Source: Candidatus Onthocola gallistercoris
Lineage (GTDB): Bacteria > Bacillota > Clostridia > Lachnospirales > Lachnospiraceae
Assembly (NCBI GenBank): GCA_018715345.1
Contig: DVLT01000038.1
Location: forward strand, 7,614 to 71,613
Length of the DNA stretch: 64,000 nt
Reading direction: 5' to 3'
The stretch's first letter is position 1. Each line of letters begins with the position of its first letter. Of the stretch, positions 33,495 to 53,012 are shown one piece after another. The notes below the pieces were generated by a model. The model was not told where the DNA came from and did no database searches. It saw only the letters and a list, made by a program, of their open reading frames with translations. The position numbers were made by a program, and so were the translations under genes.

Positions 33495-33540
33495 CCCCTC
33501 TTTACTGGATAAGATCCGTAAAGAGGGGAGATTTTTTATT
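33495..33540 (+). terminator. Rho-independent terminator
   Basis: CCCCTCTTTAC (33495-33505) pairs with GTAAAGAGGGG (33518-33528), followed by ATTTTTTATTTT. Confidence 0.7.
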
Positions 33541-33583
33541 TTCGATGCATTCGTTTTGTTTAACAAAGACCCGATCCCAAGAA

Positions 33584-34699: not shown

Positions 34700-34834
34700 A
34701 ATAAAAGCCTCCTTATAAAATGCTTAAAAACGGGGATTTACTGGATAGTATACCACTTTTTAGGCTTTACGAATACGCGATTTTAGAGTAAAATGGAAAA
34801 TAATCGACTTTTACCGGTACAGGAGGTTGGAAAG

Positions 34835-36226
34835 ATGCAGCTTACAACTGTGAGAGAGTTATATAAAGAGACAGAGAAATACATCGATAAAAAAGTAAAG
34901 ATCGGCGGTTGGCTGAGGAACATCCGGGATTCAAAAACATTTGGCTTTTTGATGGTCAACGATGGAAGTTTTTTCCAGACACTTCAGGTTGTGGTGGATG
35001 AGAAACTGCCGAATTTTTCCCAAGTATGCCATCTGAACGTGGGCGCGGCAGTGATCGTGGAAGGAACACTGGTGGCGACGCCGAAGGCGAAGCAGCCCTT
35101 TGAGATACAGGCGGAGAGTGTGGAGATCGAAGGTGTGTCCTCCCCCGATTATCCCCTCCAGCCAAAGCGGCATTCCTTTGAGTATCTCCGGACGATCACC
35201 CATCTGCGGCCCCGGACGAATACTTTTGCGGCTGTATTCCGTGTGCGTTCGCTGATCGCCTATGCGATCCATAAGTTTTTCCAGGAACGGAACTTTGTTT
35301 ATGTGCATACGCCTCTGATCACCGGCAGCGACTGTGAAGGCGCAGGCGAGATGTTTAGGGTGACGACTTTGGATATGGATCAGGTGCCCAGGAAAGCGGA
35401 CGGAAGCGTGGATTACAGTAAGGATTTCTTTGGGAAAGAGACGAACTTGACAGTCAGCGGTCAGTTGAACGGCGAGACGTTTGCCATGGCTTTCCGCAAT
35501 ATTTATACTTTTGGGCCCACATTCCGGGCCGAAAATTCCAACACCACCCGACATGCGGCTGAGTTTTGGATGATCGAGCCGGAGATTGCTTTTGCGGATC
35601 TTCAGGACAACATGGATCTGGCAGAGGATATGCTCAAGTACATCATCCGTTATGTACTGGAGAATGCGCCGGAGGAGATGGCCTTCTTTAACCAGTTTGT
35701 GGATAAGGGGCTGATCGAACGTCTGGAACACGTGCTCAACTCGGATTTTGCCCATGTGACTTACACAGAAGCGGTGGAAATACTTGAGAAGAATAACGAT
35801 AAATTTGACTATAAAGTTCATTGGGGAAGCGATCTGCAGACAGAACATGAGCGGTATCTGACGGAACAGATTTTCAAACGTCCGGTATTTGTGACCGATT
35901 ATCCGAAGGAGATCAAGGCATTCTATATGAAACAGAATGACGATGGAAAGACAGTGGCCGCCATGGATCTGCTCGTGCCGGGCATTGGTGAGATCATCGG
36001 CGGAAGTCAGAGGGAAGATAACTACGATCGGTTAGTGGAACGTATGGAAGAACTGGGACTGAACAAAGAAGATTATGATTTCTATCTGGATCTTCGTAAA
36101 TATGGTTCTGTACGCCATGCCGGCTATGGTCTGGGATTTGAAAGATGCGTCATGTATCTGACCGGTATGGCCAATATCCGGGATGTCCTTCCCTTCCCCA
36201 GGACAGTTAAGAACTGTGATATTTAA
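34835..36226 (+). CDS. asnS: Asparagine--tRNA ligase
   Basis: [23 protein letters not shown] domain and class II motifs [21 protein letters not shown] and [11 protein letters not shown] 34835 follows AGGAGG. Confidence 0.9.
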
Positions 36227-36362
36227 CGAAACATCCGAACCTGCGGTATGGCAGGGCAGTTGACGTGAACAGGGGCCTGACCTTTTGAGAGGACAAGGCC
36301 CTTTCTGTTTTCCAATACATTTTTCAGGGGTTTTATTTGATACATCAGAGGAGAGACATAAG

Positions 36363-38183: not shown

Positions 38184-38187
38184 GTCT

Positions 38188-39255
38188 ATGCGATTTATAC
38201 ATACAGCAGATATCCATTTGGGGGCAGCGCCGGATAAGGGCAGCCCCTGGTCTGGAAAGCGGGAGCAGGAGATAAGGGAAAGTTTTTACCGTCTCCTCGA
38301 TCTGGCCAATGATGAAGGCATTGAACTTTTGCTGATCGCCGGCGATCTGTTCCATCGCCCTCCGCTGAAGCGGGAACTTAAAGAACTGAACTACCGGTTT
38401 GAGTCCATGTTCCAGACCCGGGTGGTCATGATGCCGGGAAATCATGACTTCTTAGGACCGGCATCCAATTACAACGGCTTTGAATGGGCGGATAATGTGA
38501 CGTTCTTTGGAAAAGAGTCCATGCAAAGAAAACACTTTCCCAAGTGGGATCTGTGGGTGTATGGCCTGGGGTATTGTCACAGAGAGATAAAGAAACCGCT
38601 GTACGATCATGTGCGTCCTGGAGACGAACCGGGAACCCATATCCTTCTGGCACACGGCGGGGACGAAAAGCATATTCCCATCGATTTTAAACAACTCTGC
38701 ACAGCCGGTTTCGACTATGCGGCATTGGGTCATATCCACAAGCCCCAGGTCATCGTTCCGGATCGGATCGCCTATTCCGGTTCACTGGAACCGACAGATC
38801 GGCTGGATGTGGGCCAGCGGGGATACATTTTGGGAGAGATCGAAGATACGCTCCATCCACAAGTTTCCACACAGTTTTGCCCATTTTCTGTCCGGGAGTA
38901 TAAAAACATCCGGATACCTTCCGATGTGGATATGACGTTGGGGAAATTGGAAGAAACCCTGAAACGGCTCATCGGCTCCGAAGGCAGTCAGCACATATAC
39001 AATATATGCCTCCAGGGATTCCGGGATCCGGACATCCGCTTTGACGAGGATGTGTTGATGAAACTGGGCAACATCGCTTCTGTGAAAGATGAGACCCTTC
39101 CCTGGTTTGACTTTGATCAGTTGTATGCGGATAACCGGGATAATCTCATCGGACGGTTTATCGGGAAAGTCCGGGAGATGCCCATGGATGACAAGAGGCG
39201 GCAGCAGATACTGACAGTAGGGATCCAGGCTTTGTACAGCCAGGAAGATAGGTGA
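38188..39255 (+). CDS. SbcD/YhaO-like metallophosphoesterase (DNA repair exonuclease)
   Basis: IHTADIHLG, GDLFH, GNHD and GHIH phosphoesterase motifs. Confidence 0.8.
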   Translation: MRFIHTADIHLGAAPDKGSPWSGKREQEIRESFYRLLDLANDEGIELLLIAGDLFHRPPLKRELKELNYRFESMFQTRVVMMPGNHDFLGPASNYNGFEWADNVTFFGKESMQRKHFPKWDLWVYGLGYCHREIKKPLYDHVRPGDEPGTHILLAHGGDEKHIPIDFKQLCTAGFDYAALGHIHKPQVIVPDRIAYSGSLEPTDRLDVGQRGYILGEIEDTLHPQVSTQFCPFSVREYKNIRIPSDVDMTLGKLEETLKRLIGSEGSQHIYNICLQGFRDPDIRFDEDVLMKLGNIASVKDETLPWFDFDQLYADNRDNLIGRFIGKVREMPMDDKRRQQILTVGIQALYSQEDR

Positions 39256-39259
39256 CGTC

Positions 39260-41182
39260 ATGATCATAAAAGATTTATATATGCAGCATTTCGGAAAGTT
39301 CCATGACAGACATATCCGGCTGGATCGGGGAATGAACATCATCTACGGGGACAATGAAGCCGGTAAGTCCACCATGACCAGTTTCATTGAAGCCATGTTT
39401 TTCGGGACCGAACGGGCCCGGGGAAAGGCGGCCAGAAAAGATATGTACAGTCGTTATCAACCCTGGGAAGGCGGACGAAACTACGAAGGCCGTATGACAG
39501 TGGAAGATAACGGGGAGACCTTTCGCCTCAGCAGGAATTTTTATAAGGAAGATCCGTCTTTTTCAGTGGAACATATGCAGAGCGGGAAAAAGGTTTCGTT
39601 GGCGGATGAACGGATCGATGACTTGTTTGACGGCCTGACCCGGCCAAATTTTAAAAATACCCTTTGTATCGGTCAACTGTCCGGACGGCCGGACAGTCAG
39701 TATGGGCTGTCTTTGCAGGCACAAATGGCCAATGCGGCAAAGACCAGCACAACGGGGGTGGATTTAAAAGGCGCGTTGGAATACCTGAAAAAGGAACGGC
39801 GTCAATATGACTCAAAAGCCATCAAAGACCGTCTGCAGGCCATCGATGACCAGTTAAACGGTACCGTCCCGTTGATGGATCCGGAGGAATACGATAGACA
39901 GCATGCTCGACTGGAACAGCAGATCAAGGACAATGAGGCCCGGATACGGGAAGCCCGACAGTCGGGAAAGACGGCCCGAAAAAAAGATCAGAAGCAGCGG
40001 ATGGAGGCCATACGCCTTCTGGAAGAGAATAATTATCTGGCTGAAGAATATCAGCGGAAAAAAGCCCGATATAACGCCCTTGGCAAAAAAGCATCCAGAG
40101 GGGATTATCAGACGCTGCAAAGGCAGTGGCGGGAAGCCAGAGATACGTATAATCAGTCTTACGATAAATTGTCCCGGAGAAATGGAAGAGATCTGGCCAT
40201 CTTATTTTCGGTGATGATGTTTGGCCTCCTCATACTGATGGTATTTTTCTTTCTGAAAAATTCCACCATATACCGCATCGGAGCCTGCCTGGTGTTTGCC
40301 GCTGTACTCATCGGCTGCGCCCTGCTTTTGATGACTGGACGCGGCCAGTTAAAACGGCGGACGCGCAAGGCCAGGGAAGCTATGGAACAGTACCAGGAAC
40401 AGATGGAAGAAGGCATGGCCGGCCAGGGACAGGCTCGGGAAAGGGAAACCCTGCGCCAGGAATTGATCCGGCTGAAAGAAAAGTATGATGCGATCCAAGA
40501 ACCCCTTCAGGAATATATGGATATATACGGGGAAGATCTGTCCCTGATCGACGAGGAAGAGGACGGAGAAGATGTCCTTGAGCCGTTGAACCGGGAGCGG
40601 GAGGAACTGATACGGAAGAAGGAGCAGCTAAATGCCCGGAAAGAATGGGCCGACCGGGCGGAGGCAGACCGGATGGCCCTGGAAGAGGAAGCGTCGGTTC
40701 TTCAAGAAAAAATGGCGGAAAATGAAGAACAGTCGGGGATCATCGAGGAATGTGCGGAGATCATCAGATCTCTTTCGGAAGACATCCACGGGGATTTCGG
40801 GCAGGAGCTGAACCAATGGGTATCCGGGATCTTTAACCGGATGACCGGCGGCAAATATCCATCGGTCCGTGTGGACGAGCAGTTGGGCATCCAGGTGGAT
40901 GACGGACATCAGTTTGTGGATATCGACCTGTTGAGCCAGGGGACAAAAGATCAGTTATACCTGTCCCTTCGGCTGGCCATGGTCCACCTGCTTTTTGGCG
41001 GCAAACCCATGCCGGTGATCCTGGATGATACCTTTGCCAGTTTTGATGACAGCCGGATGGCGGAGACGCTGCACTGGCTGGGAAATGAAACGGGTTTGCA
41101 GGTCATCATCCTGACTTGTCATCATCGGGAAGCGGCCGCACTGGATGAAATGGGTATGGATTACCATTATGTGGAATTGTGA
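39260..41182 (+). CDS. SbcC/YhaN-like AAA ATPase with coiled coil and a central TM pair
   Basis: Walker A GDNEAGKST, long charged coiled coils, two central hydrophobic helices, C-terminal LILDDTFASFD Walker B. Confidence 0.7.
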   Translation: MIIKDLYMQHFGKFHDRHIRLDRGMNIIYGDNEAGKSTMTSFIEAMFFGTERARGKAARKDMYSRYQPWEGGRNYEGRMTVEDNGETFRLSRNFYKEDPSFSVEHMQSGKKVSLADERIDDLFDGLTRPNFKNTLCIGQLSGRPDSQYGLSLQAQMANAAKTSTTGVDLKGALEYLKKERRQYDSKAIKDRLQAIDDQLNGTVPLMDPEEYDRQHARLEQQIKDNEARIREARQSGKTARKKDQKQRMEAIRLLEENNYLAEEYQRKKARYNALGKKASRGDYQTLQRQWREARDTYNQSYDKLSRRNGRDLAILFSVMMFGLLILMVFFFLKNSTIYRIGACLVFAAVLIGCALLLMTGRGQLKRRTRKAREAMEQYQEQMEEGMAGQGQARERETLRQELIRLKEKYDAIQEPLQEYMDIYGEDLSLIDEEEDGEDVLEPLNREREELIRKKEQLNARKEWADRAEADRMALEEEASVLQEKMAENEEQSGIIEECAEIIRSLSEDIHGDFGQELNQWVSGIFNRMTGGKYPSVRVDEQLGIQVDDGHQFVDIDLLSQGTKDQLYLSLRLAMVHLLFGGKPMPVILDDTFASFDDSRMAETLHWLGNETGLQVIILTCHHREAAALDEMGMDYHYVEL

Positions 41183-41228
41183 TAAAGACAAAAAAAGCGT
41201 ATAAAAGTACAAAAAATAAGTCGAATCC

Positions 41229-41287
41229 GGACAGAAAATGACAGAATCCGGACACATCATTCCAAAGGGATAAATATATGATACAAT
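41229..41287 (+). promoter_or_regulatory. Promoter P1 with a tripartite direct-repeat operator (candidate LytTR site)
   Basis: GGACA (41229) N6 GACAG (41240) N5 GGACA (41250), then 27 nt, then TGaTACAAT with -10 at 41282-41287. The wider 11-mer GAATCCGGACA is repeated with 21-bp periodicity. Confidence 0.55.
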
Positions 41288-41302
41288 ACGGAGGCAGAGA
41301 TC

Positions 41303-42028
41303 ATGGGGGAAAACATGAGAATAGCAGTTGTGGATGACGAACCCTTTTTCCAGGAGGAAATCATACGATGTCTGAAGGAGAGCGGGAGAAAACTGGGGAT
41401 ACGGATGAGTATCGAAAGTTTTGATTCGGCAGAGCAGCTGCGCCGGGAGATTAGGGAAACCGGAACCTTCAGCGCCTATTTTCTGGATTACAGTCTGGAA
41501 GGGGAGAATGGTTTTGAACTGGCCCAGTATCTGAACCGTCATGGCGAGCATCCGTATATCATCTTTGTCACTTCCTATGACGGGATGGCGGTGGATGCTT
41601 ACCAGCTGGATGCGTTCCGGTTTATTCCAAAGCTGGAAATGGAATCGCGGATCGAAGAGGCTGTAACAAGTATATACAGGGAATGTCAGCCGGGAAACCG
41701 GCGGTATTATATCCTGGTAACCAGAGATCGGATCGATCGGGTGGATTACCGGGATATCCTGTATTTCAAAAAGGATGGACGATATACCCAGCTGCGGACG
41801 GCCAGACATTGGGTCAGTATCCGCAAATCTCTGAAGGAAATATGGGACGAGCTGCCGCCGGAAGAATTTGTTTTTGTCAACAAAAGCTGTATTGTCAATC
41901 TGAGCCATACAGTGGGTGTCCAGGAACGGTATGTGATCCTGAGCAGCCGGGAGGAGCTGCCCATCAGCCGCTCCCAGTACAAACCCGTCAGAGACAAGAT
42001 TTTTGAATACTGGCAGGCGAAAAGATGA
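41303..42028 (+). CDS. LytTR/AlgR-family response regulator (RR1)
   Basis: Receiver domain (IAVVDDE, FLDYSL) and C-terminal LytTR domain (ILYFKKDGRYTQL...FVFVNKSCIVNL). GGAGG lies 8 nt before ATG 41303. Confidence 0.85.
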   Translation: MGENMRIAVVDDEPFFQEEIIRCLKESGRKLGIRMSIESFDSAEQLRREIRETGTFSAYFLDYSLEGENGFELAQYLNRHGEHPYIIFVTSYDGMAVDAYQLDAFRFIPKLEMESRIEEAVTSIYRECQPGNRRYYILVTRDRIDRVDYRDILYFKKDGRYTQLRTARHWVSIRKSLKEIWDELPPEEFVFVNKSCIVNLSHTVGVQERYVILSSREELPISRSQYKPVRDKIFEYWQAKR

Positions 42029-43335
42029 GTCTATTTTACGCAATTTGGGAATTTGTATATTGTTTTGCAGAACTGTTTGTCACATGGCGGCTGTTGTCGG
42101 CCATTTTTCTCCTTCCCCATCGTGTGAGGGAGGATTGGAAGGCGTTTCTCTGGTTCGTGCCCCTGGGGATCATTCAGGGCGTGAATGCCCAGGGTGTTAT
42201 GATGTCCATCGCCATATTGTATATCAATATCGCCTATATGACTGTCCTGTATGTGAAAAAGGCGGAGACGGATAAAAAGGATGTGCTGCTGATCGTGGCA
42301 ACCGTGTGCAGTTCATTCTATCTGTTCCGGCTGGCGACGATACATTTGATCGGATTTTTATTGGATATCGGGGAGTTTGGCCGATATCTTTACATGGAGC
42401 ATAGTATTGAACGGCTTTTGGTACAGCTATTCCAAATAGTATGCCTGGCCATTTTAAGCGGAGGTTTGACGCATCATTTTGAAAAGTCGCCTTTTGACAT
42501 GGAATGCTGGCGTTGGACATTGCTTTTGGTAACAGTGACAGAGAATCTGGCTGTCATTTATTTTCAAGGGATTTTTATTAATTACCAGTGGAAGGATATC
42601 CTACAGGATGTTTTGTTGCTGTCCTTTGTGCTGCACATACTGGCAACACTCGTTCTGGCCAAGTTCCAATGGCGGTATCAGAAGATGCGGCTGGACACGG
42701 CGGACATACGGAATGCGGAGATACTGGACAAGTATCACCAGTTGGAAGAAGTGCAGAAGGCACAGGCGTCCATGCTCCATGACTTGAGGAATTATCTGGT
42801 GGTCTTAAACGGGGAGATCAGCATGGGTAACCGGGAAGCGGCCAAAAGGACGCTGAGAGATATCATAGATACTGTGCCCAACGTGGAACCTAAAACCTAT
42901 ACCGGCCACGGCGTCATCGACTGGCTGCTCCGGGTAAAAAGCGCGGAGGCGGCGGAAAAGGGCGTGGAGATGTTCATCGCCGGCGATAAGGTGGGCGAAC
43001 TGGCCATCACCGAACTGGAGATATGTACGCTGCTGGGTAATCTTTTGGACAATGCGGTGGAAGCGGCCCAGAAGGCTCCGGAGAAATGGGTGGATGTGGA
43101 GATCTGGCGGGAAAAGGATCTTTTGTTCCTGAATGTGGGCAACAGTCTGGCGGAGCCGCCAAAGCAGAGTGGAAGGTATTTCCTCACCTCCAAGCAGGAC
43201 AAGATGCACCATGGCATCGGCCTGAGAAATGTGGACCGGGTGGTGAGAAAATATAGCGGCAAGCTGAACTTCAAAGTGGACGAGGAACGGTTTGACGCGG
43301 AAGTCATATTAAATGCGAAAAGGAGACAGGAATGA
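42025..43335 (+). CDS. AgrC/HPK10-type membrane histidine kinase (GHKL)
   Basis: 6-7 N-terminal TM helices. H-box MLHDLRNYL, N-box LLGNLLDNAVEAA, G-box HGIGLRNV. ATGA overlap with the RR1 stop. Confidence 0.8.
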   Translation: MSLFYAIWEFVYCFAELFVTWRLLSAIFLLPHRVREDWKAFLWFVPLGIIQGVNAQGVMMSIAILYINIAYMTVLYVKKAETDKKDVLLIVATVCSSFYLFRLATIHLIGFLLDIGEFGRYLYMEHSIERLLVQLFQIVCLAILSGGLTHHFEKSPFDMECWRWTLLLVTVTENLAVIYFQGIFINYQWKDILQDVLLLSFVLHILATLVLAKFQWRYQKMRLDTADIRNAEILDKYHQLEEVQKAQASMLHDLRNYLVVLNGEISMGNREAAKRTLRDIIDTVPNVEPKTYTGHGVIDWLLRVKSAEAAEKGVEMFIAGDKVGELAITELEICTLLGNLLDNAVEAAQKAPEKWVDVEIWREKDLLFLNVGNSLAEPPKQSGRYFLTSKQDKMHHGIGLRNVDRVVRKYSGKLNFKVDEERFDAEVILNAKRRQE

Positions 43336-43481
43336 TGAGAGAACAGAACATGGACAGGATCAACGTGGAAGAAGTGAAAAGTGAAATGGAACAGATGAAA
43401 TCTTTCAAAAACGCAGAGATTGAGCCGAGAATGTCTATTACAGTTACATGTACAGCACTCTTTACAGTTATCTGCTGTTGA
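43332..43481 (+). CDS. Lanthipeptide precursor peptide (LanA-like), 49 aa, absent from the ORF track
   Basis: AGGAGA at 43321-43326. The ATG overlaps the kinase TGA. Translation: MMREQNMDRINVEEVKSEMEQMKSFKNAEIEPRMSITVTCTALFTVICC. A LanM gene starts 87 nt downstream. Confidence 0.8.
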   Translation: MMREQNMDRINVEEVKSEMEQMKSFKNAEIEPRMSITVTCTALFTVICC

Positions 43482-43491
43482 TCGAATAGTC

Positions 43492-43531
43492 AAAAAGGGA
43501 TAAAAATCCGCTGATTTTTATCCCCTTTTTG
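43492..43531 (+). terminator. Intercistronic hairpin/terminator between precursor and lanM
   Basis: Perfect 12-bp stem: GGGATAAAAATC (43497-43508), loop CGCT, GATTTTTATCCC (43513-43524). Followed by CTTTTTG. Confidence 0.75.
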
Positions 43532-43568
43532 TTACCATAAAGATTTTATTGGATGTTGGGGGAACGTT

Positions 43569-46559
43569 ATGTTTGATAAAAGACAAAGTTATCTGAATGA
43601 GCGGATCTACAAAAAGCATGAGGGAGGTGTGCGGACGCCGGAGTTATGGAAAGAGCTGTTTGGGGATGCATCATGTCAGATGATCGAAAACCGTTATCCA
43701 CAGGTGCGCGCCTATTTTGCCCAGGAACCCTATACAGTGGAAGAGGGTTGGCCGGATGCTTGCGACGGAAAGATCTTTACCCTGTATCAGCACGGGTTTT
43801 ATCACGGAAAAGCCCAATGGAATAAAGAAGTATTTGACAGCTTCTACATTCCATGGCTGAGCACGGCCAGGGAATATTTCCGATACATTTATCCGGACAG
43901 CAGACAGGATACGGCCTTTTTTACGGAGGGTTTGCCAGGATTCCGAAAAAAGATGGTCACTTTGTCTTTAAGGGTACTGATCCAGGAGATGAAAGTCTGG
44001 GGCGATGATGGGGAATCGGGAGAACTATACCAACGATACAACGAGGATGCCTTAAAGGATGAGATTTATGTCGATCAACTGTATGAAAAATATCCGGTCA
44101 TGCTGCGGGAATTGATCCGGTGTGTTCGTCAGACATGTGAATCCATCAAAGAATGTTTGGAATATCTGGAAAAAGACCGGGGGGAGATCTGCCAAAGGCT
44201 GCTGGGAGGCCGTTCCTTTGGAAAAGTAACAGTAGTCAAAGATGCTTTGGGCGATACCCATCATAATGGGCGATCCGTACTGGAACTGACCTTGGATACA
44301 GGAGATAAACTGATCTATAAACCCCATAACCTGGAGCATGAAGCGTTTTATCAAGAGATGACCCATATTTTATCAGAAGGCTGTCGGGTGGAAACCTATG
44401 TCCGACCCATTATTTGCCGGGAAGATCACGGATGGGAAAAACAGATCGAAGCTTCTTCATGTGGGACCCGGGAAAACGTACAGGATTATTACTACCGGAT
44501 GGGTATCCATCTGTTTAGCGCCTGGCTGTTTTCTGTAAAAGATCTGCATTACGAAAATATCATTGCCATGGGAGTTTATCCGGTTTTTGTGGATACAGAA
44601 GCGCTGTTGGTGCCGGAACGAAAGGGGGATCCGGAGCTTTTGTTCGAAGTGGAACGGTGGAAGAATCAGTCGGTCCTTGCCACCTGTCTGCTGCCTTCCC
44701 GGACTCCCGGTTTTGGAAGGGATATCAGCGGCATCTGCGGAAGCGGCGGAAAAAGCTGCCTGAAAACCCCCACAGTGCTGGATCCTGGAACCGGGAAGAT
44801 GCGCATGGGGTATGCCATGGGAGATATGGCGGAAGGCAAAAACATCCCCCGAACGCCAAGGGGATATGAGGTTCCAGAAAACTTTGCGGATGAGATTGAA
44901 AAAGGATTCACAGATGCTTTTCAGTATGCCTTGTTTATCAAGTCCCGGCTGATGAAAGCCGTGGAGGATCGGAAGGATATAAAGGGACGGTATCTATACC
45001 GATATACCCAGGAATATACATTAAATCTGTGGAGTTCCTATAACCCTTTGTTTTTATCAGATGGGGGTATGCGCCACATGTTTCTCATGAACATGGCAGA
45101 GAATAAGGAAAGCCAAACGATCCGCCGGATCAATGATCTGGAAATCGAGCAGATGCTTGGCGGAGACATTCCCTATTTTACGGCGGATTCCCTGGATACC
45201 GGCTTGCATGATCCTAAAGGGGAGATGGTGGAAGGGTGGTTTGCGGAAACGCCAAAGGCGATGGCGGCCCGCCGGATCTGCCGACTGTCAGAGCAGGATA
45301 TGGGAAATGAACGGACGGCGATAAGGGAAGCTTTTGACCGGAATTTTTCCCTCAACGATATGGTATGTACGGCAGAAACGGACAGGGAAACAGTCGTACG
45401 TTGGATACTGGAAAAAATCGATGGGGAAAAGATCCTCCTGCATGATGGCAGCGTGGCCTGGGTACAGAAAGACTACAGCGCCGAAGGCCAGGGGGCAAGG
45501 ACTACGGATATATTAAGCATGAACCTGTATGACGGTATCGGCGGGATCGCCTTGTTCATTGCCGCCGGCTGGAAAGTGCTCAAAGACGACAGACTTCGGC
45601 AGATGATGGATGTGTTGAGACAGACATTATTTGCCTATACGGATCAGATGATGCAGTTGGAGCGAAAGAGCAAGACCGGCGCTTTCGGCGGTGAGGCATC
45701 CATTGTCTATACCTATCATCTGTTGTATAAGATCACAGGAGAAAAGATCTATCTCACCTATAGCCAGCGACATGTGAAGATACTGGAACGGTATATAGAA
45801 ATGGACGACTGGTATGATGTGGTGGATGGAAATGCAGGAGCCATCCTTGTGCTTTTAAATCTTTACGAGGAGACGGAAAAGGGGCGTTATCTCCGGGATG
45901 CCATTAAAGCCGGCATATGTCTGCTTGAGCACCATGTGGAGCAGCAGCAGGGGATCGCCTGGAAAAACAAAGCGTCCGGTCAGATGTTGGCAGGCTTTTC
46001 CCACGGCGACAGCGGAATGTTCCTGGCATTGTCCCGGCTGTATCATCATACCGGTGATGAAGGCGTTCTGGATGTGTTAAAGCAGATCCGGGAACATGAG
46101 ATGTCACTGTATGTGGAAGAAGTGGACGACTGGCTGGATCTTCGGGGAAAGACGCCCGAAGTGCGGGAAACGGTGGCCTGGTGCCACGGCGCGGGCGGTA
46201 TCCTTTTGTCCCGCCTGAAAAGCTATCCCTATCTGACGGGAACGTTGAAGGAAGAGGTGGCGAAAGATATCCATCGGGCAGCCCAAAAGGCGGCGGTTGG
46301 CCATATACGGAAGGACTTCTGTCTCTGCCACGGCAATTTCGGGAACCGATGGATCCGGGATGCCTATAGGCTTTTTTCAGGAGAGACCGGGACAGAAAAA
46401 CCGGTGTCCGACCTGTTGATAGAAAAGATCCGAGAGCATGGGCTGGAAGCGGAAGAAAGCCGGCGTTACAGTCTGATGCACGGCCTGGCCGGCATCGGCT
46501 ACGGCCTGCTGCGGGAGATGGATCCGTCCCTGCCGGATATACTGGCAGTGGAAGTGTAA
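43569..46559 (+). CDS. lanM: Class II lanthipeptide synthetase LanM
   Basis: 996 aa. N-terminal DUF4135-type dehydratase region. C-terminal LanC-like cyclase with GFSHGDSG, WCHGAGG and CLCHGNFG (Zn-ligand and catalytic His motifs). Confidence 0.9.
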   Translation: MFDKRQSYLNERIYKKHEGGVRTPELWKELFGDASCQMIENRYPQVRAYFAQEPYTVEEGWPDACDGKIFTLYQHGFYHGKAQWNKEVFDSFYIPWLSTAREYFRYIYPDSRQDTAFFTEGLPGFRKKMVTLSLRVLIQEMKVWGDDGESGELYQRYNEDALKDEIYVDQLYEKYPVMLRELIRCVRQTCESIKECLEYLEKDRGEICQRLLGGRSFGKVTVVKDALGDTHHNGRSVLELTLDTGDKLIYKPHNLEHEAFYQEMTHILSEGCRVETYVRPIICREDHGWEKQIEASSCGTRENVQDYYYRMGIHLFSAWLFSVKDLHYENIIAMGVYPVFVDTEALLVPERKGDPELLFEVERWKNQSVLATCLLPSRTPGFGRDISGICGSGGKSCLKTPTVLDPGTGKMRMGYAMGDMAEGKNIPRTPRGYEVPENFADEIEKGFTDAFQYALFIKSRLMKAVEDRKDIKGRYLYRYTQEYTLNLWSSYNPLFLSDGGMRHMFLMNMAENKESQTIRRINDLEIEQMLGGDIPYFTADSLDTGLHDPKGEMVEGWFAETPKAMAARRICRLSEQDMGNERTAIREAFDRNFSLNDMVCTAETDRETVVRWILEKIDGEKILLHDGSVAWVQKDYSAEGQGARTTDILSMNLYDGIGGIALFIAAGWKVLKDDRLRQMMDVLRQTLFAYTDQMMQLERKSKTGAFGGEASIVYTYHLLYKITGEKIYLTYSQRHVKILERYIEMDDWYDVVDGNAGAILVLLNLYEETEKGRYLRDAIKAGICLLEHHVEQQQGIAWKNKASGQMLAGFSHGDSGMFLALSRLYHHTGDEGVLDVLKQIREHEMSLYVEEVDDWLDLRGKTPEVRETVAWCHGAGGILLSRLKSYPYLTGTLKEEVAKDIHRAAQKAAVGHIRKDFCLCHGNFGNRWIRDAYRLFSGETGTEKPVSDLLIEKIREHGLEAEESRRYSLMHGLAGIGYGLLREMDPSLPDILAVEV

Positions 46560-46648
46560 AAAAGTTGTAAGAACTGGCGGAACGGATGCTATAACCGGAC
46601 GTTATATGGTAAAATCAATAGTAGGAGACGAACTGTATATAGATTGTT

Positions 46649-47455
46649 TTGGCAGGCAGCAGAATCGTGTCTGAAAATCAAGCATACACAGAAGGTCAGA
46701 AACTGCCCGGATATCTGAAGATCGGGATTGTGGACGATGAAGTTTATTTCCAGGAACAGATATATGGCATTTTAAAGAAATGTGAAAAATGTTTAAAAAT
46801 CCGCATGGATATCCGGATATTTTCTTCGGCAGAGGAGCTGATGGAAAGTCTGAATGAGAAAGAAATATTTACAGCCTTTTTTCTGGATTATCGTCTGGGC
46901 GATGACAATGGTTTTGCGCTGGCAGAAAAGATCCAAGCCTTTTTACCGGATGCTTTTTTGATCTTTGTCTCCTCTTACTCGGAAAAAGTATTTGATGCGT
47001 TTCGGCTGAAAGCTTTTCGATTTATCCCCAAAACGGATATGGAAAAACGTATAAGCGAGGCTATCGGGTCGATTTACCGGGAATTGGAAAGCGTGAATAC
47101 GGCATATTATGTGGTGGCAACGGGCCAGGGAATGGAACAGATCTGTTTCAGGGATATACTTTATGTCCGTAAAGAAGGCAAATACAGTGTGATCGTGACC
47201 AAGGCGGGTGAAAGACGTGTGAGAAAATCGCTGAAGGAGATTTCCGGGGAATTGCGGGAAAACGAATTTGCCTATACGGCAAGAGATTATATTGTTAATC
47301 TGGAGCATATATCCGGTTTTTCCGGCAATGATGTGATCTTGGAAGACGACTGTTTGATTCCGGTAAGCAGAGAGAGGAGAAAGGACCTAAAACAAAAAAT
47401 TTGGGACTATTACGAACAAAAGAGGAAGGAATCGAAAAATAGAAATAAAAATTAG
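46649..47455 (+). CDS. LytTR-family response regulator (RR2), paralog of RR1
   Basis: IGIVDDE, FLDYRL and a LytTR domain (ILYVRKEGKYSVI...YIVNLEHI). There is no in-frame ATG before the receiver domain. Candidate starts are TTG 46649, GTG 46667 and ATT 46643, all poorly spaced from AGGAGA (46623-46628). Confidence 0.75.
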   Translation: MAGSRIVSENQAYTEGQKLPGYLKIGIVDDEVYFQEQIYGILKKCEKCLKIRMDIRIFSSAEELMESLNEKEIFTAFFLDYRLGDDNGFALAEKIQAFLPDAFLIFVSSYSEKVFDAFRLKAFRFIPKTDMEKRISEAIGSIYRELESVNTAYYVVATGQGMEQICFRDILYVRKEGKYSVIVTKAGERRVRKSLKEISGELRENEFAYTARDYIVNLEHISGFSGNDVILEDDCLIPVSRERRKDLKQKIWDYYEQKRKESKNRNKN

Positions 47456-47472
47456 AAAGATACGGTATTCAA

Positions 47473-47531
47473 GGACAAAAAAAGACAGTTGGAGGACAAT
47501 CCTCTGCGAATTTTTTAGAAACTGTTATACT
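47473..47531 (+). promoter_or_regulatory. Promoter P2 with the same tripartite operator as P1
   Basis: GGACA (47473) N6 GACAG (47484) N5 GGACA (47494), then 27 nt, then TGtTATACT with -10 at 47526-47531. Confidence 0.55.
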
Positions 47532-47640
47532 GGAACCAACGAATGAAGCTGGCTTATTCAAAAGATTTAAGGGGGGCGATACCGTTGGGGATGGAACAAT
47601 GGAAACTGCAGACAATCAGAAAAGGGAGGAGAGGAAGAGT

Positions 47641-48057
47641 ATGAGGAAAAGGATATCAGCTATTCTAATGACAAGCTTAGTGGCTTTTTTGACAATCAGC
47701 CAGTTTGGGGGAAATGCTTTTGCGGGGAATATTTCAGATACGGAATATTACTTTTCAATTGATTACGCTTTAGACACAAGAGATACACCGGCACGGACAA
47801 AATATGATGATACTTCACATTATATGTATCCAAACCGTTATATTAATCAGTCATATGTTGCTTGGGGAGTTGGATGCGCTTGGAATGGTACTGAAATTGA
47901 AAGTTATGATGAACTTGCGATAACGATTACAGGACCTTACGAATATTATATTCCGAATTATTGTTATGAAAATGATAGACCAATGGCGCGAGTAAGAGCA
48001 TATTCTTATTATGATGATTTATCAGTGGCTGGTGTATGGAGCCCAGATAGTATTTAA
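47641..48057 (+). CDS. Small secreted Tyr-rich protein of unknown function
   Basis: GGGAGGAGAGGA RBS. Sec signal MRKRISAILMTSLVAFLTISQFGGNAFA with predicted cleavage before GN. The mature protein is about 110 aa with 17 Tyr and 2 Cys. The gene is visibly AT-richer than its neighbours. Confidence 0.6.
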   Translation: MRKRISAILMTSLVAFLTISQFGGNAFAGNISDTEYYFSIDYALDTRDTPARTKYDDTSHYMYPNRYINQSYVAWGVGCAWNGTEIESYDELAITITGPYEYYIPNYCYENDRPMARVRAYSYYDDLSVAGVWSPDSI

Positions 48058-48103
48058 CAAAATGTGTATAAAGTATACATATGAAAGTTATAAAAAATCT
48101 GAA

Positions 48104-48124
48104 GGGGTCTTTATTTAAGACCCC
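48104..48124 (+). terminator. Weak hairpin after the secreted-protein gene
   Basis: GGGGTCTT, loop TATTT, AAGACCCC. The T tract that follows is poor (TCTCTG). Confidence 0.35.
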
Positions 48125-48152
48125 TCTCTGAGAAACTGTTGGAGGTGAAATT

Positions 48153-48914
48153 TTGAGAAGAATATGCGGTATATTGGCCGTGGTACTTTCCTTTTTTACC
48201 CTTGGGTGCGCCTGTTCCGCTCCGGCGGACACGGAAACGGAGAGTCCGGCTCAGACCAACTATGTGGCAGAAGCGCATAAAGGGGAGACAACGGACGTGT
48301 TGCTTGAGGACGGCGGGGGGCCCCGGGGGGAACAGCCGGAGGAGATCATGCCGGAAGCAAAGCTGTTTGATCAGGAACAGCAGGTGAGAAACGGTGATAT
48401 CCAGTTGACCTTTCAGACGATCACCTATTATGACAATGTGGACGAATCAGGGATACAGTTGGGTGAAGATGCGGAAAATTACTGGATCCGCTATGATGTG
48501 ATCGATGAATCCGGCCAGTGCCTGGATCATGCGCGTATTGCCATGGCACAGGTAAACATCGCCAACCTGTCGGAGAAGGCGGAAACCATCAGCCTGATGG
48601 AATTTAACCTTCGGTTTTATGAGCCGGACACGGGGAACGCTTCTGTGACACGGGAAGTGGGTTATGCCGATCCGCTCCAGTCCAATGACGATCCAAAGAA
48701 GATGTATGAATATACGTTTGAACCGGGAGAAGATGTGGATTTCACTTTAGGTTATGTATTAAGAAGTGAGGATGTGGAAAGGATGGAAAAGGGAGAGCTG
48801 ATTCCCACCATGGAAGTGAACAACCGGGGATATCTTCCCACAGAGGAGATGACGAAGGATCATCTGGATGAAATGGCTTACATAGAACTTCCGATTCCGG
48901 AGGAAGAACCATGA
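48153..48914 (+). CDS. Putative lipoprotein (LanI-like position)
   Basis: TTG start after GGAGGTG. Signal peptide ending FFTLGCAC (lipobox-like), then an acidic extracytoplasmic domain that looks beta-rich. Confidence 0.55.
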   Translation: MRRICGILAVVLSFFTLGCACSAPADTETESPAQTNYVAEAHKGETTDVLLEDGGGPRGEQPEEIMPEAKLFDQEQQVRNGDIQLTFQTITYYDNVDESGIQLGEDAENYWIRYDVIDESGQCLDHARIAMAQVNIANLSEKAETISLMEFNLRFYEPDTGNASVTREVGYADPLQSNDDPKKMYEYTFEPGEDVDFTLGYVLRSEDVERMEKGELIPTMEVNNRGYLPTEEMTKDHLDEMAYIELPIPEEEP

Positions 48915-49741
48915 GAAAGATGATAAAGACAGAATTGCGCAGGGCCTTCTGCAACCGGACGTTTTTTGTCATCCTCGGGCTTGGGCTGGCTTTTGTCATA
49001 TGGCATACCGTCCAATACAAAATACCCTATACCCGGTCGCTGGGAGTGAGTTATCACGGGGAAGAGCTCTATCCTCATAATGTATATCAGGAATGTATTC
49101 TTGGCAACAGTATGAGTGTTCATGCTTATATTTACAGCATGTGCCTTCCCATATTGGCGGCGCTCCCCTTTGGCGCGTCTGCCTGCCAGGATCGGCAGAG
49201 CGGATACCGGGATCAGATCCTGACCCGGACAAAACGGAGCACATATTACCAGGCAAAATGGATTGCCGCCTTTCTTTCCGGCGCGGCGGCGGTTGTCCTT
49301 CCGATGATTTTTGATTTTATTGTGACCCTGTGGTTTTTTCCGACGCTGCCCGGAGACAGTATGAGCCGTTGGGACAGTGTGGGGATCGATGGGATGATGG
49401 CAGAAATTTATTATCATATGCCCATGGTATATATGCTGGCAAAGTGGATGTTCCTGGCTGCTTTTGGCGGTATTTTCGCAACAATGTCGCTGACTGCGGG
49501 GATGTTCGCAAAAAATATGGTTGTCGTACTGTTGACACCGGTCCTTGTCCAACTTTTATATAATTCGGCGACATCGTATCTGAATGCCCGGAACTGGCAG
49601 TTTATGGCGTATTATACGGTTTATCAGCCGTTGTTTTCCATGCGGCTGTGGAAACCTGTTCTGGTGGGCGGCATCATGCTGCTTATCTGCCTGCTTTTAT
49701 ATTGCCGGAAGGCAAGCGTGAAGGACGCGTTAAATACATAG
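48911..49741 (+). CDS. ABC-2-type transporter permease
   Basis: Six hydrophobic segments. 4-nt overlap with the upstream gene. Immediately precedes an ABC ATPase gene. Confidence 0.6.
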   Translation: MRKMIKTELRRAFCNRTFFVILGLGLAFVIWHTVQYKIPYTRSLGVSYHGEELYPHNVYQECILGNSMSVHAYIYSMCLPILAALPFGASACQDRQSGYRDQILTRTKRSTYYQAKWIAAFLSGAAAVVLPMIFDFIVTLWFFPTLPGDSMSRWDSVGIDGMMAEIYYHMPMVYMLAKWMFLAAFGGIFATMSLTAGMFAKNMVVVLLTPVLVQLLYNSATSYLNARNWQFMAYYTVYQPLFSMRLWKPVLVGGIMLLICLLLYCRKASVKDALNT

Positions 49742-49753
49742 GAGGGGATTCAT

Positions 49754-50419
49754 ATGTATGTGGAGTTGAAAGATGTTTCCAAGCAGATCCGTCGCAGCCC
49801 GATACTGAACCATATAACGGTGGGATTTGAAAAGGGACGCATATATGGCCTGAAAGGAAAAAACGGATCCGGAAAGACCATGCTTTTGCGCATGATCGCC
49901 GGTCTGATCCTTCCAAGTTCCGGCCAGGTGCTGATCGATGGAAAAATACTTGGAAAAGATATGTCCTTTCCTGAGAGTATCGGCATACTTATCGAAAATC
50001 CGTCCTTTATAGGCGGCGAAACGGGGCTTTCCAATCTATCCATTCTGGCGTCTATTCAGAAAAAAGCGGATCGGAAAGATTTGGAAGAAACTCTTGAACG
50101 GGTGGGGCTGAATCCCGGGGATAAACGGATTTACAGAAAGTACTCCCTCGGCATGAAGCAGCGGCTGGGTATCGCGGCGGCGATCATGGAAAAACCGGAT
50201 ATCATCCTTCTTGATGAACCGATCAATGCCCTGGATGACAAAGGGGTGGAAGCGGTACGGCAGATACTGGCAGAAGAGAAGAAACGGGGAGCGCTGATCA
50301 TCGTTGCCTGTCATGATGAGACAGAACTCCGGCTGCTTTCAGATGAGATTTTTTATATGCAGGGCGGAGAGATCACAGACCATGAGATACTGGAGAAGGA
50401 ACGGGAGGATAAGCCGTGA
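49754..50419 (+). CDS. ABC transporter ATP-binding protein
   Basis: Walker A GKNGSGKT, signature YSLGMKQR, Walker B IILLDEP. Confidence 0.9.
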   Translation: MYVELKDVSKQIRRSPILNHITVGFEKGRIYGLKGKNGSGKTMLLRMIAGLILPSSGQVLIDGKILGKDMSFPESIGILIENPSFIGGETGLSNLSILASIQKKADRKDLEETLERVGLNPGDKRIYRKYSLGMKQRLGIAAAIMEKPDIILLDEPINALDDKGVEAVRQILAEEKKRGALIIVACHDETELRLLSDEIFYMQGGEITDHEILEKEREDKP

Positions 50420-50961
50420 GATATAAATATTTGTGGACGGCTGTGGCCGTCATCTTTGCTGTGACCGGCATCATCGCGGCGGTACGGAGCGTACAGCTGA
50501 ACCATCAATATCCCGTTCCCAGGAACGTGATGGTTTCGGAGAATACACCGGCAGAAAAGAACGGATGCGCCATTACAGTGACGGACAGCGTCCTGGAACC
50601 GCTGGCGGATGACATGGAAGATCTGCCTGTGGGCGAACCGATATATATGGTCAAGGCATCGCTGCGGATCGAGAATATCAGTGACTATGACAGCAGCATC
50701 TATCTGACAGATTTCGGATTACAGTCGGATATATGGTATAACCAGATGAGCCGGCACGAGACGACGGTGCTGAATCCGGAACTGGAATCCGCCGTCATAA
50801 CTTTACATCCGGGAGAATCCGAAGAAATCGTGCTTCCTTTTATGATATATTGGGACAGGGGAATGGAAGAAATGGCAAAACAGCTTATGGCGGGCGAGGC
50901 AGATTTGGATCTTGTCATCACTCAGTATCCGGTCAAACGGTTCTGCCGGCTGTCTTACTGA
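50416..50961 (+). CDS. Membrane-anchored extracytoplasmic protein, possibly DUF4352-like
   Basis: One N-terminal TM segment and a C-terminal domain that looks beta-rich. 4-nt overlap with the ATPase gene. Confidence 0.45.
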   Translation: MRYKYLWTAVAVIFAVTGIIAAVRSVQLNHQYPVPRNVMVSENTPAEKNGCAITVTDSVLEPLADDMEDLPVGEPIYMVKASLRIENISDYDSSIYLTDFGLQSDIWYNQMSRHETTVLNPELESAVITLHPGESEEIVLPFMIYWDRGMEEMAKQLMAGEADLDLVITQYPVKRFCRLSY

Positions 50962-50979
50962 CAGAAAAGAAGTGAAAAG

Positions 50980-51615
50980 ATGGGTAATAAAAAGATGATC
51001 TGGCTGCTGCCTGTTTTCGGAGCCATCCTGCTTATGGATATCCATCAACGGGCGGCTACATACAATATATTTTTTGCGTCCGATGGCGTTTTGGGATTTC
51101 TGATCTATCTTTCATCCATGGATACGGCGATTTATCCGATCCTGCTCCTTCTGCCAGCATATTTAAGTGTCCGAAGATATTTTCGGCTTGCTGTGATCAT
51201 ACGGAAGAAACATCGGAAAAGACTGGTATGGGAACAGACCAGAAACCTGATGCTGTTGGCGGGGCTGTTTTCGCTTTTGTATACAGCGCTTGCCTTCAGA
51301 GAAGTTTTAGGTAGACTGTGGCAGCCGGTGCCTGCAGAAGTATGGTTCCTGTTTTTGATCTTTAATTTTTTTAAACAGTCTTTTTTTATGCAGGTTTTTC
51401 TTCTGTGCCGGTGGATCAGCGGACACTATATACCGGGCATCCTTCTGGTGATTTGGTGCTGTGTTGCTGCCGCCCGGACGGCTGTGCCGGCTTTTGTATT
51501 CGGAACGATGGAAAAGACGTTGTTTTTCTGCCTGATTTTTTTGATGACGGATACCTTATTGCTGATACTGAATCTGGCAGCGGGGAAAAGATGTGATTTT
51601 ATTGAAAATACGTAA
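50980..51615 (+). CDS. Polytopic membrane protein
   Basis: About 6 hydrophobic segments. No family recognised. Confidence 0.45.
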   Translation: MGNKKMIWLLPVFGAILLMDIHQRAATYNIFFASDGVLGFLIYLSSMDTAIYPILLLLPAYLSVRRYFRLAVIIRKKHRKRLVWEQTRNLMLLAGLFSLLYTALAFREVLGRLWQPVPAEVWFLFLIFNFFKQSFFMQVFLLCRWISGHYIPGILLVIWCCVAAARTAVPAFVFGTMEKTLFFCLIFLMTDTLLLILNLAAGKRCDFIENT

Positions 51616-52435
51616 AAAAAGCAGCCTGAGCGGAATGATCCGTTATGATATGGCCCAGGGAATATGGAAAAATATCGGCTGGTTTTTGCCGGTGGTTTAC
51701 TTTACTTTCGCGTTCTTTGCGAAAACACGGCAGATGCTGGCTCTGCCCTTTGCCCCTCCGGTGGATAAGATGGGGCTGACAGATCTGGTTTTTTCATTTT
51801 TTGCCGGTATGGAGACATATCATCCGGGTCCCGGGCAGATGTTTGATCCGCCCATCCAGTGGCTGCTTGTCTTTTTTTATCTTTCTTTTCTCATCAGTTT
51901 CTATCCCGCCGCGGATATGAAAAAATATGGGCGGAATCTGATGATCCATGTCAAGAGCCGGGAAGTTTACTGGTACAGTAAATGTCTGTGGGTTTTTGCG
52001 ACAACCATGGTTTATTATGGACTGATCCTGCTTTTGATGGCCATTTTTCTTTTGATGACCGGAAACTATTCACCGGGGTTTCATAAAGATACAGGGGCAT
52101 TTCTGGCCGGTGTGATCGTTGGTCCGGAAACGGGAGCAGAGATTTGTTTTTTCATCCTGGTGACACCTTTTCTGGTCATGCTTTCTTTGGCCCTGTTCCA
52201 GAATCTGCTGAGTTTCGTGCTGTCGCCGGTTTACGGATTTTTGGTCAATATCGGTTTGGTCATCTGTTCGGCGTTTTTTAATACCAGTCTATGCGTGGGG
52301 CAGATTGCCATGTTCAAGAGAAGTTTTATTTTGGGCGGAAGTGTGGGATGGCCCCATCTGGTCATACCGATACTGCTCTCTGTACTCAGCATCCTGGCAG
52401 GCGGTATGTATTTTAAACGAAAAGATATCCTGTAA
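51593..52435 (+). CDS. Polytopic membrane protein (ABC-2 permease-like)
   Basis: About 6 hydrophobic segments. Overlaps the upstream gene. Confidence 0.45.
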   Translation: MILLKIRKKSSLSGMIRYDMAQGIWKNIGWFLPVVYFTFAFFAKTRQMLALPFAPPVDKMGLTDLVFSFFAGMETYHPGPGQMFDPPIQWLLVFFYLSFLISFYPAADMKKYGRNLMIHVKSREVYWYSKCLWVFATTMVYYGLILLLMAIFLLMTGNYSPGFHKDTGAFLAGVIVGPETGAEICFFILVTPFLVMLSLALFQNLLSFVLSPVYGFLVNIGLVICSAFFNTSLCVGQIAMFKRSFILGGSVGWPHLVIPILLSVLSILAGGMYFKRKDIL

Positions 52436-52476
52436 AAATACACATGACCTTTATCTGAAGGCCATGTGTATTTTTA
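52435..52476. terminator. Bidirectional terminator between convergent genes
   Basis: AAAATACACATGACC, loop, GGCCATGTGTATTTT (one mismatch). Flanked by A and T runs. Confidence 0.6.
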
Positions 52477-52493
52477 TTTCCCGGGAAATGGGA

Positions 52494-53012
52494 TCATTTA
52501 CTTGCTTTTTCTTTCAGAAGGATATGTCTGGGAAGTCCGCCGTAACACAGCCGGGTATCTGCGATCCGATAACCGGAGGCGAGCATATTGTTCAGACTGA
52601 AAACATTATCCGGATGGACGGTGCACATATAATACCGGTAGGAGCTGTCCTGGAGCAGTTCTTCCGCCGCAGCCAGCATCCGGGCCTGCAGGTGATGTCC
52701 CCGGGCAGCCGATGTGACAACCGCCGTGTCCATGTGGGCCACAGCCGACAGTTGATCATCGTCCATGTCAAGGAAGCGGCCAAGATTACCGGGATCTGTG
52801 CCGGGAAAATCGATGGCAAAGAAACCGGCTGCATCGCCGCCGTCGGATAAAGCCAGAACAGTAAAGCCTTTGTGGGAGATGTGGGCGCGGATATAGTTTT
52901 CGTCATCAGCCACAAACCAGTCCGGATCAGCCGCGGTGTCCACCGCTTCGGCCATCAGCCGGACAATGGCCGGAATGTGGGATGGGTCCGCTTTCCTAAA
53001 TGAATAATCCAT
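52494..53012 (-). CDS. GNAT-family N-acetyltransferase
   Basis: Length and pattern (IPAIVRLM...VVTSAARGHHLQARML) are typical of the GNAT acetyl-CoA-binding core. ATG 53012 is preferred over TTG 53036. Confidence 0.6.
   Translation of the reverse strand: MDYSFRKADPSHIPAIVRLMAEAVDTAADPDWFVADDENYIRAHISHKGFTVLALSDGGDAAGFFAIDFPGTDPGNLGRFLDMDDDQLSAVAHMDTAVVTSAARGHHLQARMLAAAEELLQDSSYRYYMCTVHPDNVFSLNNMLASGYRIADTRLCYGGLPRHILLKEKASK

Follow-up and report, generated by a model that had tools for sequence, protein, structure and literature searches.

Two predicted LytTR-type promoters share a tandem operator in a lanthipeptide locus

Gene content of the locus

The window analysed here (the whole stretch of DNA, 64 kb in length) contains a gene cluster arranged as two putative transcription units, each preceded by a predicted promoter, P1 or P2 (Table 1). 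Downstream of P1 lie genes for two response regulators (RR1 and RR2), an AgrC-like histidine kinase, a LanA precursor peptide and the lanthipeptide synthetase LanM, which at 996 aa has intact WCHG and CHG zinc-ligand motifs. RR2 is 43% identical to RR1, from which it differs in having 17-22 extra residues at the N-terminus and a basic tail at the C-terminus. Gene callers place its start later than that of the 268-aa RR2 ORF. In both proteins the receiver retains its acidic pocket, its phospho-acceptor Asp and its conserved Lys. The spacer between LanM and RR2 contains an extended -10-like sequence, TGgTAAAAT (46607-46615), without a GGACA operator, from which RR2 may be transcribed independently of any operator. 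Outside the species, no close relative of RR2 turned up in a homologue search; a search of PDB sequences with RR1 did not bring up the AgrA LytTR-DNA structure, and a metagenome scan with an alignment of three regulators returned only the same species (L036) and unrelated receiver domains.

No cluster gene matched the AgrB family, and lanA and lanM sit between the kinase and RR2. Neither agrB nor a C39 peptidase/ABC exporter was found among the individually scanned cluster genes. Outside the cluster, the check for an exporter or agrB covered 10 ORFs of at least 400 aa, a size class in which an AgrB of ~200 aa would not show.

The first gene of the P2 unit encodes a 138-aa secreted protein, to which the precomputed Pfam annotation assigns PF10916 (DUF2712) and our own Pfam-A scan (E<=0.01) no family. 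For the ABC ATPase, the best NCBIfam model ('lantibiotic protection ABC transporter ATP-binding subunit', TIGR03740) scored 163 bits, where the curated cut-off is 310, and the membrane proteins of this unit had no family match. At the 3′ end of the unit there is a hairpin followed by a T-run, near 52436-52476.

Table 1. Features of the locus, given as positions in the window.
Feature	Position	Strand	Description
P1 operator	41219-41254	+	Distal unit AGTCGAATCCGGACA, spacer GAAAAT, proximal unit GACAGAATCCGGACA
P1 operator core	41229-41254	+	GGACAGAAAATGACAGAATCCGGACA
P1 extended -10	41279-41287	+	TGaTACAAT (TGATACAAT), 24 nt 3′ of operator
RR1	41303-42028	+	Response regulator, receiver (PF00072) and LytTR (PF04397)
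AgrC-like histidine kinase	42025-43335	+	Polytopic N-terminal half and HATPase_c_5/GHKL (PF14501)
lanA	43332-43481	+	49-aa precursor ending ...EIEPR/MSITVTCTALFTVICC; start overlaps kinase stop codon
Hairpin after lanA	43497-43524	+	12 bp with T-run; terminator- or attenuator-like
LanM	43569-46559	+	Class II lanthipeptide synthetase, DUF4135 and LANC_like
RR2	46667-47455	+	Response regulator, receiver (PF00072) and LytTR (PF04397); start GTG 46667 or TTG 46649
P2 distal (left) unit	47463-47477	+	CGGTATTCAAGGACA; GGACA at 47473-47477; 5′ sub-site degenerate
P2 operator core	47473-47498	+	GGACAaaaaaaGACAGttggaGGACA / GGACAAAAAAAGACAGTTGGAGGACA
P2 spacer between units	47478-47483	+	A6; most related sites also A-rich
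P2 proximal (right) unit	47484-47498	+	GACAGTTGGAGGACA; first bases ACAGTT
Weak hairpin	47490-47516	+	GGAGGA/TCCTCT with T-run; overlaps proximal GGACA
P2 spacer, operator to extended -10	47499-47522	+	24 nt
P2 extended -10	47523-47531	+	TGtTATACT (TGTTATACT); hexamer TATACT at 47526-47531
Secreted protein	47641-48057	+	138 aa, signal peptide; first P2 gene
DUF5027 protein	48153-48914	+	Lipoprotein-like
Membrane protein	48911-49741	+	276 aa; homologues in L001/L002
ABC ATPase	49754-50419	+	
DUF5028 protein	50416-50961	+	
Membrane protein	51034-51615	+	
Membrane protein	51635-52435	+	

Sequence and geometry of P1 and P2

The first-pass annotation had described the same operator upstream of each unit, and the two 26-nt strings that it quoted match the window exactly. 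The phasing that it gave for the repeated elements, 11 and 10 nt from start to start, is the same in P1 and P2, and the first spacer is A-rich in both (GAAAAT and AAAAAA, respectively). It had also placed the extended -10 at 27 nt from the operator. The distance is indeed equal at the two promoters; however, 27 nt separate the proximal unit from the -10 hexamer, whereas the last GGACA lies 24 nt from the TG. At each promoter, 4 nt separate the end of the proximal unit from the -35 position. P2 has no usable -35, the sequence there (TCTGCG, 47503-47508) being a 2/6 match to TTGACA, and that of P1 is poor (ATTCCA, 3/6). Such a layout, with a poor -35 and a TG-extended -10, is what would be expected of activator-dependent promoters. 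The P2 transcript is predicted to start near 47538.

The strongly conserved positions, GGACA and GACAG, are identical between P1 and P2, and the 5′ sub-site of the distal unit is degenerate at both. The pentamers inside the units differ (AATCC/AATCC in P1 and TTCAA/TTGGA in P2), so that one regulator need not bind both promoters with the same affinity. The flanking sequence is as dissimilar as had been claimed, with identities of 8/24 in the spacer, 25/60 upstream and 15/60 downstream. Therefore, P2 is not a recent duplication of P1.

Within the window this arrangement is confined to the two promoters. A search for GGACA-N5-8-GACAG-N4-7-GGACA gave 2 matches, P1 and P2, against 0.00 in 100 shuffles, and even the bare GGACA-N16-GGACA occurs nowhere else on either strand of the 64 kb. 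The full 20-base pattern would be expected to match by chance 2e-7 times per window. Moreover, when the 59-nt P1 block was compared ungapped and without any choice of positions, P2 was the best of 127,884 segments of that length (33/59 identities, with 30 for the runner-up).

The distal unit of P2 starts 8 nt past the stop codon of RR2. Because RR2 ends so close to the operator, with only a weak hairpin in between, a degree of read-through from P1 is likely to reach the P2 unit, which may already be expressed in this way. This hairpin (47490-47516) could act as a leaky terminator for RR2 read-through; its fold was not better than that of shuffled sequences (z = -0.85). A riboswitch, an attenuator or a strong terminator at P2 was considered and rejected, the folds of the RR2-P2 spacer and the P2 5′ UTR being no better than shuffles. 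No RNA family from Rfam was found within 33000-56000.

Recurrence in other genomes

One genome for each of 185,579 species was scanned for GGACA-N6-GACNG-N5-GGACA-N24-TGNTA. This gave 18 matches, a number near the raw chance expectation, 12 of them in Clostridia and mostly in Lachnospiraceae. A homologue of RR1/RR2 and/or of the kinase was present inside the 8-kb locus for 10 of the 12 Clostridia matches and for none of the 6 from other phyla. Unforced second operator sites were found in three loci (L010, L016 and L023). In L010 and L016, agrB-RR-HK follows the first site and a 50-aa AgrD-like peptide the second. In L023 (from a Ruminococcus sp. MAG), the first site lies before RR-HK-LanM, exactly 24 nt 5′ of TGTTATAAT, and the second directly 3′ of LanM, ahead of a small secreted peptide. 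One regulator serves two such promoters in each of these loci. The two-promoter design is therefore recurrent, and a single regulator suffices there. In an alignment of five promoters from three species (P1 and P2 of the window, P1 of L001, and P1 and P2 of L023), both GGACA elements, including that of the P2 distal unit, and TGnTAnAnT are invariant, together with five scattered single columns, four of which are A.

Three Lachnospiraceae MAGs (L001, L002 and L021) are syntenic with positions 33500-43335 of the window, having the same flanking genes, the RR-HK pair and the P1 operator. In L001 and L021, whose kinase is 61% and regulator 71% identical to those of the window, the P1 operator and its 24-nt distance are kept. 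The closest relative, L001, is without lanA, lanM, RR2, the secreted protein and P2, and its membrane/DUF5028/ABC block is found directly 3′ of the kinase. Therefore, a separate P2 is not essential to the system. From their joint absence in L001, RR2, P2 and the lan genes seem either to have been inserted into an older module of a two-component system plus ABC genes or to have been lost from it.

More distant kinase homologues (L083-L086) have no GGACA repeats; in two of them, L085 and L086, repeats of another sequence are found, with a period of 22 bp. These stand between the kinase and the next operon: two copies of ATTTCGnCAA before an ABC block in L085 (4960-5000), and two copies of AAATTTCGACAAA before agrD-agrB in L086 (6353-6400). 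Both have the same P2-like design with another repeat sequence. As these distant homologues use other repeats, the GGACA consensus is subfamily-specific.

In four Lachnospiraceae loci (L011, about 2860-2945 on the minus strand; L012, 6068-6150; L015, 5764-6050; and L017), a stretch of 80-300 nt without a convincing ORF comes after the operator and promoter and is conserved in pairs of species, with the regulator gene 0.3-1 kb further downstream. This conserved stretch may represent a long leader, or else a small regulatory RNA. An environmental metagenome contig (L059, 1467-1535) was seen to contain a 21-nt unit, GGACATTGTTCGTGCGTCCGn, four times in tandem; it also encodes a response-regulator receiver domain, and its repeat is unrelated to that of the window.

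Variation among strains

Among 14 same-species contigs, the 185-nt spacer between RR2 and the gene for the secreted protein contains four SNPs (47501, 47511, 47521 and 47525). None of these falls in the operator, the TG or the -10 hexamer, position 47525 being the N of TGN. The four SNPs make up one haplotype and are all located 3′ of the operator and 5′ of the hexamer; those at 47501, 47511 and 47521, at intervals of exactly 10 nt, lie in the 24-nt spacer.

Four independent assemblies (L087-L090) have a tandem duplication or cassette swap in the region corresponding to 47328-48999 of the window. At the junction, DUF5027 and the 276-aa membrane gene, represented by its first ~30 codons, run into the last ~42 codons of RR2. 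An intact P2 follows, and then a diverged secreted-protein/DUF5027 pair of 58-86% nucleotide identity, with 78% protein identity for the secreted protein; 100% nucleotide identity resumes at 48720. The P2 operator and -10 are retained here beside a cassette that is down to about 70% identity. The cassette region is a second hypervariable region of the locus.

Between the window and other same-species strains (L004-L007 and L030), the locus is 98-100% identical except for the sensor half of the kinase and lanA. The sensor half (42025-42684) has 82-85% nucleotide identity among strains, with the changes clustered at residues ~109-160. The LanA alleles are distinguished mainly by the pair of residues that follows EIEPR (MS, VT, AT or TT), and ITVTCTALFTVICC is invariant. 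Taken together, the variation in kinase sensor and lanA resembles the pherotype signature of agr and comCD. The RR-HK-LanA-LanM module is also found in two other taxa (L023 and L083). Between the AgrC-like kinase and LanM, peptides are encoded at 43332-43481 in the window, at 3540-3680 in L083 and at about 4600-4760 in L023. In these three unrelated loci the peptide ends in hydrophobic residues followed by CC (...FTVICC, ...FTFLCC and ...LTILCC). No obvious double-glycine cleavage site is seen in any of the three, nor is a LanT/C39 exporter encoded close by.

Nature of the operator and regulation of the two units

We consider it likely that P2 is an activator-dependent promoter of the LytTR class, with two tandem units of ~15 nt, a 21-bp period, an extended -10 and no usable -35. 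LytTR promoters have two direct repeats at ~21-22 bp from centre to centre (9 bp plus a 12-13-bp spacer), located directly 5′ of a poor -35; P1 and P2, with a period of 21 bp, show this canonical AgrA/ComE/PlnC layout. The locus contains LytTR regulators and a kinase of the HPK10/AgrC type, and the repeats stand before both a regulatory operon and an effector/transport operon. P1 and P2 have every feature of a LytTR-dependent promoter that can be looked for in sequence. The first-pass annotation had counted three half-sites at each promoter, a description to which we prefer two tandem units, each with the core nACAG-N5-GGACA and with their GGACA elements 21 bp apart at P1 and P2 alike. At related sites the whole 14-15-nt unit is repeated with a 21-bp period. 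The 10-nt stretches before each GGACA, which are positions outside the search pattern, are 7-9/10 identical within most of these sites (e.g. CAGAATACGGACA twice and ACGGATTACGGACA twice). Examples of unit pairs are TACAGAATACGGACA/GACAGAATACGGACA, AACGGATTACGGACA/GACGGATTACGGACA and TGCAGATTACGGACA/GACAGATTACGGACA, with a linker that is mostly A-rich. Because related sites have this longer repeat unit, the supposed middle half-site, GACAG, is best read as the 5′ part of the promoter-proximal unit.

A winged-helix regulator of the OmpR/PhoB type bound to three equivalent, helically phased half-sites would account for the three occurrences of GACA at 10- and 11-nt spacing in P1 and P2. However, the ~14-15-nt unit and 21-bp period of related sites argue against this, as does L001, where the 5′ part of the distal unit is intact and four sub-sites alternate (GACCG/GGACA/GACCG/GGACA). 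Moreover, no winged-helix regulator was found among the scanned cluster genes (41303-52850), the scan elsewhere covering ORFs of at least 400 aa, which are too long for a regulator of ~230 aa; such an operator is therefore very improbable. That the resemblance of P2 to P1 is a coincidence or a functionless remnant, the proximal GGACA being for instance merely part of an RR2 terminator hairpin, is hardly credible. The weak hairpin and T-run do overlap that GGACA, but they fold no better than shuffled sequence and have no comparable counterpart at P1. In addition, the chance expectation is of the order of 2e-7, the motif recurs next to LytTR genes in many genomes, and at P2 it is kept across strains and in the duplicated cassette.

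P1 and P2, read as LytTR-type promoters, are very probably switched on together by the response regulators of the locus itself. A shared operator and geometry do imply co-regulation, as the first-pass annotation proposed, but 'direct evidence' of one regulon was too strong a phrase for binding and induction that are inferred from sequence. The same applies to activation, to which regulator acts at P2, to the signal and to what the P2 genes do. Co-regulation is supported as firmly as sequence by itself allows, because the motif is unique to P1 and P2 in the window, is associated with LytTR and AgrC-like genes elsewhere, forms two-promoter designs in three other loci and is invariant within the species. 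In the proposed circuit, the single AgrC-like kinase would phosphorylate RR1 and/or RR2, and a phosphorylated LytTR dimer would bind the two repeat units of an operator on one helix face and recruit RNA polymerase. Because the same operator stands at the same distance in both promoters, activation of the kinase would raise the P1 and P2 units together. P1 would drive RR1, the kinase, lanA, lanM and RR2, resulting in positive autoregulation, while P2 would drive the secreted protein, the lipoprotein and the ABC block, with a possible role in protection or export. The likely signal would be the LanM-modified LanA peptide.

As RR1 and RR2 are paralogues of only 43% identity, different regulators, or a pair of activator and antagonist, could therefore serve P1 and P2. 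A cascade in which RR1 autoregulates P1, and RR2, as the last product of the P1 operon, goes on to activate P2 would be in keeping with the divergence of the two proteins and with pentamers that are not the same in P1 and P2. It would also fit the position of RR2 immediately 5′ of P2, the joint absence of RR2, lanA/lanM and P2 from L001, and residues at the base contacts of AgrA (a weak comparison) that are similar, not identical, between RR1 and RR2 (T/S, K/R and a shared SR). However, L010, L016 and L023 have one regulator for two promoters, GGACA and GACAG are identical in P1 and P2, and two paralogous regulators bind the same promoters in the pln system (PMC2714321); we regard the cascade as somewhat unlikely. 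In L. plantarum, co-expressed LytTR paralogues act oppositely on one promoter set (PMC2714321), and by analogy both regulators could bind both operators here, with one of them activating and the other (e.g. RR2) damping expression or shutting it off, as with PlnC/PlnD. The N-terminal extension and basic tail that distinguish RR2 from RR1 would suit this arrangement, as would the possible RR2 promoter at 46607-46615, which has no operator. Nevertheless, both proteins keep the acidic pocket, phospho-acceptor Asp and Lys of the receiver, and no sequence feature marks RR2 as a repressor, which leaves opposing regulators as a quite improbable arrangement.

Novelty and implications

Joint control of P1 and P2 through a shared operator is a well-known design for a peptide-signalling locus, and one that a specialist would expect. 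The surrounding circuit, with LanA/LanM in the place of AgrD/AgrB and pherotype-like variation, is more novel. It could be an agr-type circuit in which LanM-modified LanA replaces the AgrD/AgrB thiolactone peptide as the signal for the AgrC-like kinase, with pherotypes. We hold this to be a serious possibility, if not quite a probable one, because only the sensor half of the kinase and the first two residues of the LanA core vary among strains that are otherwise nearly identical and because the module recurs in L023 and L083. If it is true, the output promoter would be P2, serving a second polymorphic cassette (the secreted protein and the lipoprotein) and a protective/export ABC system. The literature searched contained no account of an nACAG-N5-GGACA consensus for LytTR regulators. 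Likewise, the text searched, which covers the literature incompletely, yielded no account of lanA/lanM serving as the peptide module of an AgrC/LytTR pair.

The shared operator ties the lanthipeptide biosynthetic operon to its probable protection/export operon. Moreover, it defines, from sequence, an operator rule for a LytTR subfamily in uncultured gut Clostridia, namely two copies of nACAG-N5-GGACA with a 21-bp period, followed after 24 nt by TGnTAnnnT. This rule could be used to predict agr-like regulons in Lachnospiraceae genomes.

Comparison with known systems

Like S. aureus agr P2/P3 and the agr loci of clostridia and Lachnospiraceae, the window combines a LytTR regulator, an AgrC-like kinase, two promoters, 21-bp direct repeats and, as proposed, positive autoregulation. 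The 9-mer consensus of the AgrA box is ACAGTTAAG. The proximal unit of P2 begins with ACAGTT, the core of the S. aureus AgrA box. The strict box is absent, however, as the proximal unit of P1 has ACAGAA, the distal units have no match and the conserved core is GGACA; P1 and P2 are not strict AgrA boxes because the consensus differs. The same GGACA-type operator is found in L010, L016 and L025, and these are true agr loci with agrB and AgrD-like peptides. Among the related loci, agrB/agrD are present in L010, L025 and L086. In contrast, the window has lanA/lanM in that position and no evident RNAIII-like effector, and its locus is not an agr locus because agrB and agrD are missing from the cluster.

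In the nisin (NisRK; PnisA/PnisF) and subtilin (SpaRK) systems, structural and immunity ABC operons share an operator and are co-induced by the lantibiotic. Those systems use regulators of the OmpR/PhoB type and kinases of the EnvZ type, whereas the window has LytTR regulators and an AgrC-type kinase. It is therefore not of the NisRK type, because both of its regulators are LytTR-type and not OmpR-type.

A lanM-like gene, CA_C0082, lies directly 3′ of an AgrC/AgrA pair in Clostridium acetobutylicum and is controlled by that pair (PMC10301443). Its homologues are 670-728 aa in length, are without the zinc ligands and dehydratase residues, and occur alongside agrBD (PMC10301443). In contrast, the 996-aa LanM of the window has both domains and the WCHG/CHG motifs, is accompanied by its own lanA and has no agrBD beside it.

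Each ComE site is a pair of imperfect direct repeats of 9 bp, joined by a 12-nt linker (PMC4005675). In Streptococcus pneumoniae these boxes (comCDE, comAB and comX) are likewise tandem repeats before regulatory and export operons and are bound by a LytTR dimer (PMC4005675), but the consensus is another, there is a single regulator and the peptide signal is unmodified.

The pln promoters have 9-bp repeats with a 12-bp spacer directly 5′ of the -35/-10, the right repeat being the better conserved (PMC2714321). The pln regulon of Lactobacillus plantarum C11 (PlnB, PlnC and PlnD; five operons) likewise has one AgrC-type kinase and two co-expressed LytTR paralogues. In both systems, tandem repeats on one side of the helix precede regulatory and transport/effector operons, and the right repeat is more conserved than the left. 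The repeat itself differs, being TACGTTAAT in pln and nACAG-N5-GGACA in the window, as does the length of the conserved unit (9 and ~15 nt, respectively). Moreover, the pln signal is an unmodified double-glycine peptide, whereas that of the window is probably a LanM-modified peptide, and the two regulators of the window, unlike those of pln, lie at opposite ends of their operon.
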